IMG/VR virus record: IMGVR_UViG_3300044656_000238
Location: 34,218 to 98,217 of that record
Length of the DNA: 64,000 nt
Origin: a virus
Taxonomy: Duplodnaviria > Caudoviricetes
Reading direction: 5' to 3' (one strand)
A program made the position numbers. The first letter of the stretch is position 1. Each line of letters starts with the position of its first letter. Below are positions 9,001 to 12,000 of this stretch, piece by piece.

Positions 9001-12000
9001 GACACGGGCGTCCCGGCCTCGTACATGGCCGAGGCAGTGGAACGGTCCCGGGCGACGCTGTACCGGCATGTCGACCGATCCGCCGCCGCTACCGACCAAG
9101 TCGAGCCCGAAGCCGCCGACGAGCAGCCGGACAGCGAGTGACCGTCCTACGACCGCGGCCCCGTCCCTGGGTGGTGGACGGGGCCGCGGTGCGAACTACT
9201 CGATGCCAGTGGAGGAAAGCGAGGAGACTAGGTTCCATTAGCAGTGGGTAGAAGGAAGCCTCCTCATGGCCTCACATCAGCACGGTAGCACCCCGCCCTA
9301 CGCTGGCACCAACGCGTTCAAACGGTCCAACGTGTACACCTCCGACCCCGACGGCAAGCCCTCCGGCCGGTCCAAACCGACGAACGTCACCGGACCGTCG
9401 AAGACCATCCCGTCGCGGTACTCGCTAAACACGCCGGCCTTCGTGCGCAGAAGGCCCACCAGGTGCCCCACCGGCGTGAACCGCCGCTCCACGATCGACC
9501 GGGCCAGCAGCGCCGTCGACAAGCGGTTCGACTCGACCTGGTTTCCCCACGACGCGCCGCGCAGGAACATGTGCAACCACGTCGCCGACCAGCCGCCGTC
9601 CTCATCGCGGGCGAACACCAGCGGCAGCGCGACCCGACTCGTGCCACGCACCTCCGACCGCATCCGAACCGTACGCGGCTCGAACGGCTTGCCACGCTGC
9701 CCGTCCAGCATCGTCATGAACCCGAAGAATGACTCCTCCGCCTCGTCGAACCCCTCCCCCGAGTACACGTTGACCTGCGGCACGATGTAACGGGCCGGGA
9801 CCTTCGACAAGTCGAGGTCGATGAACTCCGACGCCCCGTTCGTCGCATCCGTGATGTCCCCAGAGTGCGCGCCGCCGTAACCGGACAGGTTGGTGTAGGC
9901 CAACCAACCGACGTGGGTGAAGTCGTCGTCGAGCAGCAGCGCGGACAGGTCGTAGTCCGTACGCGCCTGGCGCTGCTTCCAGTGGATGAAGAAACGCAGG
10001 TGATCGCCGTCGATCTGCGTGCGGGAACCGCGGGGCATGATGCGGAAGCCGGCGCCGGTGGCCTTCCCGGACAGCGGCACTGCGACGTCCAGCACCGCAG
10101 GGTCCACGACCAGGTGCCGGCACGCGGGCAGCCGACGCGCAAGCTCGTCGTCGACGAGCTGCGTGAACTCGGCAACCAGCTCGGCCGGCAGCTCCCGGCG
10201 CGCATCCGGCGTCACCCACGCCCGGCCAGCCCGGTTGACGAACACGCGCGCGGCGTCCTGGCGCGTCCGGTTGACCAGGTGCTCGCGCAGGGACAGCAGC
10301 ACGCGGCCCGACACGCGGCCGGAGACCTCCCCGGCGGTCTTGCGGAGCAACTCCACCTCGTCCGGGCCGGCCGCGCGGAGCGAACGGTCCAGGTTGCGCA
10401 CCAGCAGACCCGGCGCGTTGCTGAGCAGGCGCACGGCCTGCGCGACGTCGGCCAGGTCGAAGGCGTGCTCCACGCGCGAGACGAGCGAGCGGACCGTGAT
10501 CTCACCGCGGGCGACGGCGAACACCGAGCTCGCGCTCGGCCACGTCTGCTGCGGGTGCTCATGTGGGTGCAGACGCTCGCCGAGGCGCTTCCACGGCTCC
10601 CCGTAAGGCGCGACGTCGGCGAGCTTGTCCGGGTTCGCGGTGACCACGTTGTCGAGGGCGGTCATGAGCGCGCGTCGGTCGCGGCGGGCGAACGACCGGA
10701 ACTTGGTCGGCGTCGCCAGAGTGACGTCGCCGCCGGACAGCGCGCACGCCAGCCGCAGCACGTCGGTGACGGTGTCGATGAGCAGCGGCCGGTCGTTGGC
10801 CAGCCGCACCCGGTTGATGAGGGCGCGGTTCTCCCGGATCGGGATCACCGCCGGCTGCTCGCCGTCCAGGCACCAGGCGGCCAGCAGTTCGAGCAGCCGC
10901 AGGTCGTCCTCGGACAGCGGGGTCCTGCTGCCGGCCAGGTCCACGTACGCCGCTCGGGCCTCCGTGTCGAGGTCGCCGCCGAGGTGCAGCACGGTGACCC
11001 GGTCGGACACCGTCGGCAGGAACTCCTCGTGGGCGGCGAGCATCTCGGCGTAGGTGTGCTGGTAGGTGCCGTAGCCCGGCAGCGCCAGCAGGTTGATACC
11101 ACCGGCCAGCAGTGTCGGCCGATCGTGGGAGGCGTCGTCGACGAGAGCGGCGGCCAGGCGCTCCAGCCAGAACTCGACCGTGTTCGGGACGTTCCGCGGG
11201 AAGTCGCGGAAATACACGTTGTGCTCGATGTGGTCGCCAACCAGGTGCTTGACAGCGCCCAGCGCGCACACGGCGGTGTCGATCACCGTACCTGGGTGCA
11301 GCGTTGACAGGTGCTGGAGCAGCTGGCCCGATGCCTTGAAACCGACCGACATCAGCGCGGCATCGAACTGCCGCGCAGCTGCGGCTCCGTCGCCAGGCTC
11401 GCCAGCCGGGGCCGGGACGCGAAGCGTCTTCTGGATGAGCTTGGTGTCCAACATGGGCGGTCCAATGTGGTCGTTGGTATCGGTCACGGTAGATGCGGTG
11501 TGTCCGTGCTGCGACCGGATTCCGGCGGCAGAACGCGATGGTGGATCATGGGAGTTGGCTGGCGTGGGCTTTCGGGGAGCCGCTGCGGCACGCCAGCCAC
11601 TCCACTCCTGCGGGCGCGCCGAGGCCGGCTGTTTCATGAAGGGACGAAGCAACCCCGTCACCCGGCTCTCCCGGGGCACCATGGCCGGCCCGGCCGCTCA
11701 ACCCGATTTCACTACGAGGAGCTTCCCGCAGGGTAACGCTTTCGTCGTGCTCAACTGCATCCCCTCGGATGGATAGTTCGCGGAACCTGTCGGTATCGGG
11801 TCTGTGCTGCGGCCGCAACGTGGCCGACCCTGACTTCGGGCGGCGGCAGTTCCGGCATCTGCGGTGTGAGTACCGTCGTGCCGCCGTCGTCGGTGTAGGC
11901 AAACAAGCCGTCCGCGGTGACCGCGGGCAGGTCCGGCATCTGCTCCTGCTGCTGGGTTGCGCCCGGTGGATCCGGCGGGGAGGTCCACAGCGCCGAGAAG

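Follow-up and report, generated by a model that had tools for sequence, protein, structure and literature searches.

A conserved structured RNA encoded beside the gene for a predicted TerD-fold protein in phages and actinobacteria

A gene for a 718-residue protein and the small RNA element that directly follows it were analyzed in a 64,000-nucleotide stretch of a virus genome (Duplodnaviria; Caudoviricetes; IMG/VR record IMGVR_UViG_3300044656_000238, positions 34,218 to 98,217). This whole stretch is called the window, and coordinates are positions in it unless another locus is named. The record is 98,217 bp long with a high G+C content and direct terminal repeats. The protein gene, assigned from its open reading frame (ORF) and sequence, lies on the minus strand at 9301..11454 with its stop codon at 9298-9300, and the RNA element follows on the same strand.

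A structured RNA downstream of the 718-residue protein gene

The handle and tip of the RNA together span ~62 nucleotides (nt) at 9212..9273, delimited by a covariance-model match at 9279-9207 and by the covariation of two helices. The ends of the RNA pair in the outer helix P1 (GAGG/CCUC, 9273-9270 with 9215-9212), which is followed by the CCAU of junction J1/2 (9269-9266) and by the 9-bp helix P2 (GAGGAGGCU/AGUCUCCUC, 9265-9257 with 9229-9221). Helix P2 encloses the invariant pyrimidine loop UCCUUCUA (9256-9249) and a variable tip (9235..9247), CCA-CUGCUAA-UGG, that forms a 3-bp stem with a 7-nt loop. The return strand passes through J2/1 (GCUUU, 9220-9216). A candidate extended -10 promoter element of the RNA gene, TGCTACCGT (9282..9290), is located 8 nt 5′ of P1. 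Downstream, a spacer of 21 nt separates the RNA from a 15-bp GC-rich hairpin (9152..9190) that is likely a factor-independent terminator, although it lacks a U tract. A convergent plus-strand ORF (8815-9141) ends toward this hairpin, which is likely a terminator common to that ORF and the RNA gene. The 151-nt stretch downstream of the protein gene has a folding energy of -77.9 kcal/mol (z = -4.9 versus shuffles). An earlier, sequence-only reading of the window had described the -10 element, 9-bp stem, pyrimidine loop, tip and 15-bp hairpin, and each of them is present. It had also drawn an outer helix of GAGGC with GCUUU; an outer helix exists, but its pairing is GAGG/CCUC and the CCAU and GCUUU segments form an internal loop.

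The covariance model scored the window RNA at 63 bits (E = 4e-13) and identified it as the sole copy in the phage genome (98 kb). Conservation and covariation were measured on an alignment of 81 distinct RNA copies. The invariant positions are GGCCAU, CUUCCUUC, AG and GC, and P1 and P2 frame the invariant GGCCAU, CUUCCUUCU, UAG and GC..CC elements together with a hypervariable tip. The CCAU opposite GCUUU, which is GCNNN across the family, is a conserved asymmetric internal loop. In P1 and P2, 97.4% of the alignment cells are paired, and 12 of the 16 pairs exhibit compensatory changes. The observed values were attained by 0 of 500 shuffles, and slid registers reached only ~55%. Covarying stems beside homologous genes had been named in the sequence-only reading as the support to look for, and P1 and P2 supply it. 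That reading had left open whether the RNA was already catalogued; Rfam 15 contains no family for the element, and an Rfam scan of 8000-12500 at E 10 returned chance matches only, none of them on the strand of the element. These results identify the element after the 718-residue gene as a real, conserved, structured RNA of a family new to Rfam.

Scanning the locus for consensus promoters and terminators found nothing, because the scan expects -35 and -10 hexamers and a U tract, which are often absent from actinobacterial signals, and the window hairpin has no T run. Two other identities were considered for the element and rejected. The AUG within GGCCAUG opens a frame of only 9 codons, and the compensatory changes in P2 argue for RNA, so the element is not a small ORF. 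A repeat element was rejected because the phage and each of the Streptomyces genomes contain only one copy of the sequence.

Linkage of the RNA and protein genes

The protein has at least 2286 relatives, and 80 actinobacterial chromosomal loci were sampled (Streptomyces, Actinomadura, Amycolatopsis, Rhodococcus, Micromonospora and others). In 72 of the 80 loci, a regular expression placed the RNA 25-35 nt past the stop codon; the covariance model recovered it in the other 8, which gives an RNA beside the homologous gene in 80/80. Five whole Streptomyces genomes (8-12 Mb) contain exactly one RNA and one gene each, 18-21 nt apart. Among 151 evenly sampled Actinomycetes genomes, 6 contained the RNA; these were also the only ones with the full-length protein, and the two genes adjoined in every case (hypergeometric p ~7e-11, calculated without regard to the relatedness of the genomes). 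The linkage of the RNA and protein genes is strict in both directions.

The pair is also found in other phages. The four closest relatives of the 718-residue protein (loci L086, L110, L111 and L112) have 72-77% protein identity. Three RNA elements follow the gene in each of the phage relatives L003, L004 and L005 (LR745208.1), which have 46% protein identity, and the three elements of each phage share the conserved words and differ in their stems. Xanthomonas phage Xoo-sp13, a human-gut phage and Rhodococcus phage Weasels2 encode homologues of 25-32% identity that are flanked by more distant RNA copies, which score 17-31 bits and have entirely different P2 sequences. Arrays of tRNA genes adjoin the protein gene in L003, L004, L005 and Weasels2. 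The Weasels2 homologue gp266, annotated as hypothetical, lies directly after five tRNA genes, and an RtcB ligase gene is found 3 kb further on (locus L107, regions of interest 706-3057, 5452-5841 and 8609-9248). A 389-nt unannotated gap follows gp266 and contains three weak handle matches and a YrlA-like tRNA mimic. The window phage contrasts with these tRNA-array phages in that no tRNA gene was found anywhere in its 98-kb genome (none by ARAGORN in the 64 kb of the window), and that genome also has no RtcB. Around the pair, none of the 9 ORFs tested (window 6000-16500) belongs to a PHROGs family and none of 3 neighboring ORFs tested belongs to a Pfam family.

A RING-containing paralogue also has an RNA next to it. 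At locus L113 (G153:C67:124000-130000), the RNA (3868-3796, minus strand) is directly upstream of the RING gene (1159-3795, minus strand) and its handle scores 48.6 bits (E = 5e-11). The L113 protein is a true member of NCBIfam NF041916, with 1118 bits against a cut-off of 600 bits, and genome G153 encodes a plain 720-residue protein with two tandem RNAs as well. The RING-fused paralogue family thus seems to have an RNA partner of the same type.

The placement of the RNA distinguishes a separate gene from a piece of the protein mRNA. The motif TGnTAnnnT occurs just 3′ of the stop codon, ~7-8 nt 5′ of P1, in the chromosomal loci displayed, and phage loci have TAnnnT at the corresponding place before P1. 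Hairpins comparable to the 15-bp one follow most chromosomal RNA copies. An RNA that in most loci starts 18-35 nt past the stop codon, on the strand of the gene, with a terminator hairpin next, could be a cis-acting structure of the 3′ untranslated region (UTR) that stabilizes, processes or terminates the protein mRNA, but a 3′-UTR structure does not account for a conserved TGnTAnnnT between the stop codon and the fold. The RNA is also 5′ of the gene in L010, where two copies are in tandem, and in Xoo-sp13, the gut phage and the RING paralogue, and one copy in L005 is beyond an intervening ORF. With RNAs placed upstream, in tandem or past an ORF, the RNA is therefore its own gene and not a 3′-UTR feature, and the cis-acting alternative is extremely unlikely. 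From its flanking motif, the RNA appears to be transcribed from its own extended -10 promoter.

A similar signal precedes the protein gene. The word CTACCGTG, which the sequence-only reading had noticed both before the RNA and upstream of the protein gene, was found at 9281-9288 and 11485-11492; this recurrence is at chance level, as 44 of 100 shuffles of the 64 kb contained at least 2 copies. The upstream copy (11485..11492, minus strand) is a candidate -10 element ~30 nt 5′ of the ATG. All four of the closest phage relatives retain a TACCGT-like -10 ~30 nt before the protein start; L086, L110 and L111 keep the window element, and L112 has TACCAT. The ~70 nt 5′ of the protein gene (11455-11523) are near-identical in L086, L110 and L111, which suggests a conserved promoter and leader with a -10 like that of the RNA gene. 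The near-identical segment includes CTACCGTGACCG and, just before the ATG, CCAACGACCACA..GGACCGCCC.

No published description of a TerD-protein/RNA pair was found in the literature searched (TerD with TROVE or Y RNA, and SCO0854/MXAN_6230). A jumbo-phage survey mentions ROT/TROVE proteins and stand-alone TerD proteins of actinobacterial phages, each separately (PMC7824862).

The variable tip

The tip is the variable part of the RNA family and the handle is the conserved part. Tip length ranges from 21 to 95 nt. The sequence-only reading had interpreted the window tip as a mimic of the tRNA-Ser(GCU) anticodon arm that is held by the protein as a decoy or sensor for anticodon nucleases, serving anti-defence or stress sensing. 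The sequence CCA-CUGCUAA-UGG does fit the C32-U33-NNN-A37-A38 pattern of an anticodon loop, but its stem has 3 bp and not 5. The tip of L110 is identical and the L111 loop, CUGCAAA, keeps the CU-NNN-AA form; the loops of L086 and L112 have 8 and 5 nt, and only UGC is common to the tips of the window RNA and its four closest relatives. The CU-GCU-AA loop recurs in only 1 of the 4, and the Ser(GCU) mimic is therefore unsupported. A conserved 7-nt CU-NNN-AA loop, which the mimic would predict, is not a property of the family either, because chromosomal tips are unrelated to it. Neither ARAGORN nor Rfam detected a tRNA-like element in the window RNA.

Tips that resemble tRNA pieces do occur in the tRNA-array phages. 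The L004 tip is anticodon-arm-like with 5 bp and a 7-nt loop (GCGGA-CUGUGAA-UCCGC), as is an L003 tip (GCGGU-AUACGGA-ACCGC). The second RNA of L003 contains a permuted tRNA: it has a T arm, a closed acceptor stem and a D arm, and its anticodon stem leads into the handle. This copy was matched by the Rfam YrlA model over tRNA-like positions 23-85 (37 bits, E = 6e-5), and the Weasels2 RNA was matched with 26 bits (E = 0.0016), both below the YrlA gathering threshold of 69. Some phage tips are thus anticodon-arm-like with different triplets, which makes a family-wide role in displaying tRNA pieces plausible. These tips, the whole tRNA mimics and the RtcB gene near the Weasels2 homologue are what an anticodon decoy would lead one to expect; the irregular loops of close relatives, the mostly unpaired CUCC-rich chromosomal tips, a window phage that has neither tRNA genes nor RtcB, and the lack of a tie between the system and any anticodon nuclease are not. 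The Ser(GCU) decoy held by the protein is considered unlikely, and a decoy or sensor role against anticodon nucleases in general is speculation, somewhat more plausible for tRNA-array phages than for the window phage.

Two Micromonospora copies (L044 4671-4767 and L078 4665-4761) have a 6-bp hairpin with the loop UUCGACU or UUCAACU. These loops fit the tRNA T-loop pattern, and a second hairpin has a GNRA-like cap, so that the L044 and L078 tips display a partial tRNA piece of another kind.

Chromosomal tips are of a different type. In most of the 71 copies they are 21-28 nt long, mostly unpaired and CUCC-rich (for example L015 4696-4718, L024 4702-4726 and L039 4696-4717). CTCC occurs in 38 of the 71 tips (shuffle mean 11) and CTCCTT in 18 (shuffle mean 0.9), although the copies are related and the counts are not independent. 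The 16S rRNA of Streptomyces ends in ...CCUCCUUUCU, and several Streptomyces tips match 8-9 nt of this tail. The CUCC-rich Streptomyces tips could be an anti-Shine-Dalgarno mimic or only reflect a pyrimidine bias. The RNA might also be an ordinary trans-acting base-pairing RNA or sponge whose CUUCCUUCU loop and CUCCUU-like tips pair with purine-rich ribosome-binding sites or mimic the 16S rRNA 3′ end, and the protein would be a co-regulated neighbor or chaperone. The pyrimidine-rich invariant loop and the motif enrichment agree with such an RNA, within the limits set by the relatedness of the copies. The same loop is kept in Xanthomonas and gut phages, however, whose hosts and GC contents differ, and conservation across differing hosts favors a protein contact over a host-specific target. 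One-to-one adjacency with a single protein family across phyla would also be unusual for a free-standing small RNA, and the base-pairing alternative is unlikely.

Predicted folds of the protein and comparison with known systems

The family to which the protein belongs is ~720 residues long and is named TerD family protein by NCBI. Pfam reported no family for the 718-residue protein even at E 10, and this includes the TerD (PF02342) and TROVE (PF05731) profiles. The only NCBIfam match was NF041916, with 356 bits over profile positions 383-732, under the 600-bit cut-off, and PHROGs returned two families of unknown function. Structure prediction for the whole chain gave a predicted local distance difference test score (pLDDT) of 77.6 and showed a clear TerD fold at about residues 482-654. 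Structural alignment of the TerD region, about residues 478-655 (9490..10023, minus strand), matched 2qz7_B (Z 14.5, 153 aligned residues, root-mean-square deviation (rmsd) 2.6) and 2kxt (Z 12.8), and Foldseek listed 2kxt and 3ibz at E ~1e-7 with probability 1.0. The TerD-like DxDLS and SGD...E.I.L motifs are retained. The C-terminal domain of the model is a beta-sandwich with the TerD fold, and the TerD domain proposed by the sequence-only reading is borne out by the predicted fold in spite of the missing Pfam match.

The N-terminal, mostly helical domain (residues 1-460; 10075..11454, minus strand) was modeled with AF2 from a deeper alignment (pLDDT 91.7, predicted template modeling score 0.83) and compared with 48,161 PDB chains. 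The top two matches were both Ro60. The best was 9l5y_B, the Ro60 of Thermus phage phiLo, with Z 9.0, rmsd 4.3 Å and 235 aligned residues, a Z score below the caution level for helical repeats and one that such proteins may attain merely by sharing a common arrangement. The second was 2nvo_A, Deinococcus Rsr (Z 7.8, rmsd 5.4 Å, 258 aligned residues). Every other PDB chain had Z ≤6.9 and ≤170 aligned residues. The Ro60 alignments span model residues 165-460, which resemble the Ro60 ring, and stop where the vWA domain of Ro60 and the TerD domain of the present protein begin. These matches suggest that the N-terminal domain is likely Ro60-shaped. An Atlas shape search returned only family members and the RING paralogue (template modeling score 0.69), and an ESM Atlas feature search with the protein gave no usable match.

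The preferred reading is that the 718-residue protein and the adjacent RNA probably form a ribonucleoprotein on the plan of Ro60 and Y RNA, with TerD replacing vWA. Direct binding of the RNA by the protein, suggested by the gene linkage, is held with reasonable confidence. Several observations weigh against the preferred reading or limit it. The best Z score is of the modest kind described above. Comparison of two alignments of the family with 14 actinobacterial Ro60 proteins by hhalign was not significant (probability 0.2%), a search of PDB sequences with the family profile found no match at E 10, and Foldseek with the N-terminal domain alone listed generic helical repeats first at E ≥0.05, with Ro60 not in the list. 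The handle, GGCCAU...CUUCCUUCU...UAG...GCNNNCC, lacks the GNCGAAN0-1G sequence proposed as the Ro60-binding motif close to the 5′ end of Y RNA (PMC4201824). The window RNA, as most members, is without a tRNA-like domain (T arm, D arm, closed acceptor stem), and there are no conserved enzymatic gene neighbors in Streptomyces or in the window phage. For the N-terminus, which the sequence-only reading had wanted compared with TROVE, the structural ranking puts Ro60 first, and Pfam and profile-profile comparisons give no TROVE signal; the balance leans only slightly toward true homology of the helical domain to TROVE.

In the proposed particle, the small RNA would start at its own extended -10 promoter, and the GC-rich hairpin would end it. 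The two ends of the RNA would pair into a handle made of P1, the CCAU/GCNNN internal loop, the 9-bp P2 and the CUUCCUUCU loop closed by UAG, and the Ro60-like helical domain may dock on this handle. The tip would then be free to vary and could be presented to some other partner, in the form of an anticodon-arm-like hairpin or an entire YrlA-like permuted tRNA mimic in tRNA-rich phages, a short CUCC-rich loop in Streptomyces, and a 3-bp hairpin with a loop containing UGC in the window phage. TerD in the place of the Ro60 vWA domain would probably add an input from Ca2+ or a small ligand, as expected from the established properties of TerD proteins. The likely job of the particle would be RNA surveillance or repair, or the tethering of an RNA-processing enzyme; by analogy with known systems, a surveillance or repair role is possible, though it falls short of an even call. 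The phage may have acquired the pair from actinobacterial hosts. More tentatively, the pairs could represent a second widespread class of display ribonucleoproteins, independent of Ro60 or anciently diverged from it, in which a universal handle docks on the Ro60-shaped/TerD protein and the tips are interchangeable RNA pieces (anticodon arms, T arms, entire tRNA mimics or loops resembling the rRNA tail). Enzymes that target RNA would then meet these tips as baits, decoys or guides, phages would exchange them against host defences directed at tRNA or rRNA, and the RING paralogue would couple RNA recognition to protein modification.

A gene for a protein next to structured, sometimes tandem RNAs in a phage or defence context also resembles type III toxin-antitoxin systems (ToxIN and the like), and the RNA might neutralize a toxic or abortive-infection protein by binding it. 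Tandem RNAs with their own promoter beside one protein gene and the presence of the pair in phages with a patchy chromosomal distribution (6 of 151 genomes) are in line with this arrangement. No nuclease or toxic domain was detected with Pfam, NCBIfam or PHROGs, however, and the endoribonuclease domain of type III toxins is missing. The tandem copies have diverged from one another and carry different tips, unlike processed identical repeats, most chromosomal loci have a single downstream copy, and the likeness of the helical domain is to Ro60, not to ToxN or AbiE. A toxin-antitoxin or abortive-infection pair is very unlikely.

To our knowledge, Ro60 with Y RNA is the only known ribonucleoprotein of its kind. 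In bacteria it has been linked with RNA quality control and with the RtcB repair operon, and its mode of action remains under debate. A second family on the Ro60/Y-RNA plan, distinguished by a different RNA handle, TerD in the vWA place and a RING-fused paralogue, would allow an independent test of what such particles do. Its handle is simple and recognizable, its tip varies naturally, and the family is common in Streptomyces and other antibiotic producers with tractable genetics. Such a family would add an RNA-based accessory module to phages of unrelated hosts, often beside tRNA arrays. The analysis adds an RNA family new to Rfam and provides a functional lead for several thousand hypothetical proteins annotated as TerD family.

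TerD proteins are Ca2+-binding stress and tellurite-resistance proteins. The C-terminal domain of the 718-residue protein is predicted to have the fold and has the motifs of this family (PF02342; PDB 2kxt, 3ibz and 2qz7). Unlike typical TerD proteins, it is fused to a 460-residue helical domain and has no ter operon genes nearby. The MXAN_6230/SCO0854 RING family (NF041916) shares the helical and TerD regions with the window protein, which differs in having no N-terminal RING region and in scoring under the curated cut-off.

The closest system is Ro60 with its Y RNAs (Yrn1 of Deinococcus; YrlA/YrlB of Salmonella and mycobacteriophages, RF02553; and the Ro60 of Thermus phage phiLo, PDB 9l5y (PMC12135203)). 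The window protein differs from Ro60 in a predicted TerD beta-sandwich at the C-terminus instead of a vWA domain with a MIDAS (metal ion-dependent adhesion site) site and in ~160 additional N-terminal residues, and the window RNA has no match at E 10 to the Rfam Y RNA and YrlA models (RF00019, RF02553). The two systems coexist: canonical TROVE proteins were found in 15 of the 151 Actinomycetes genomes, two of which (G085 and G153) also carry the RNA/TerD pair, and the pair is therefore not a simple Ro60 replacement. The sequence-only reading had invoked Ro60/Y RNA as a precedent, and the dedicated pair, the Y-RNA-like anatomy and the best structural match support that choice; the anticodon mimic it placed at the core is not supported. 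In Y RNAs the ends pair, an internal loop is conserved and the distal module varies (PMC4201824), and the present RNA likewise has an end-paired conserved stem, an internal loop and a variable distal part. As with Ro60, the protein has ~500-700 residues and a predicted helical, putatively ring-like domain followed by a second domain that probably binds a divalent cation, and at least one small RNA is encoded beside its gene. Like YrlA, the distal module is a permuted tRNA mimic in some members (L003 copy 2 and Weasels2), and like Ro60, the system is found in phages, near tRNA genes and RtcB in Weasels2.

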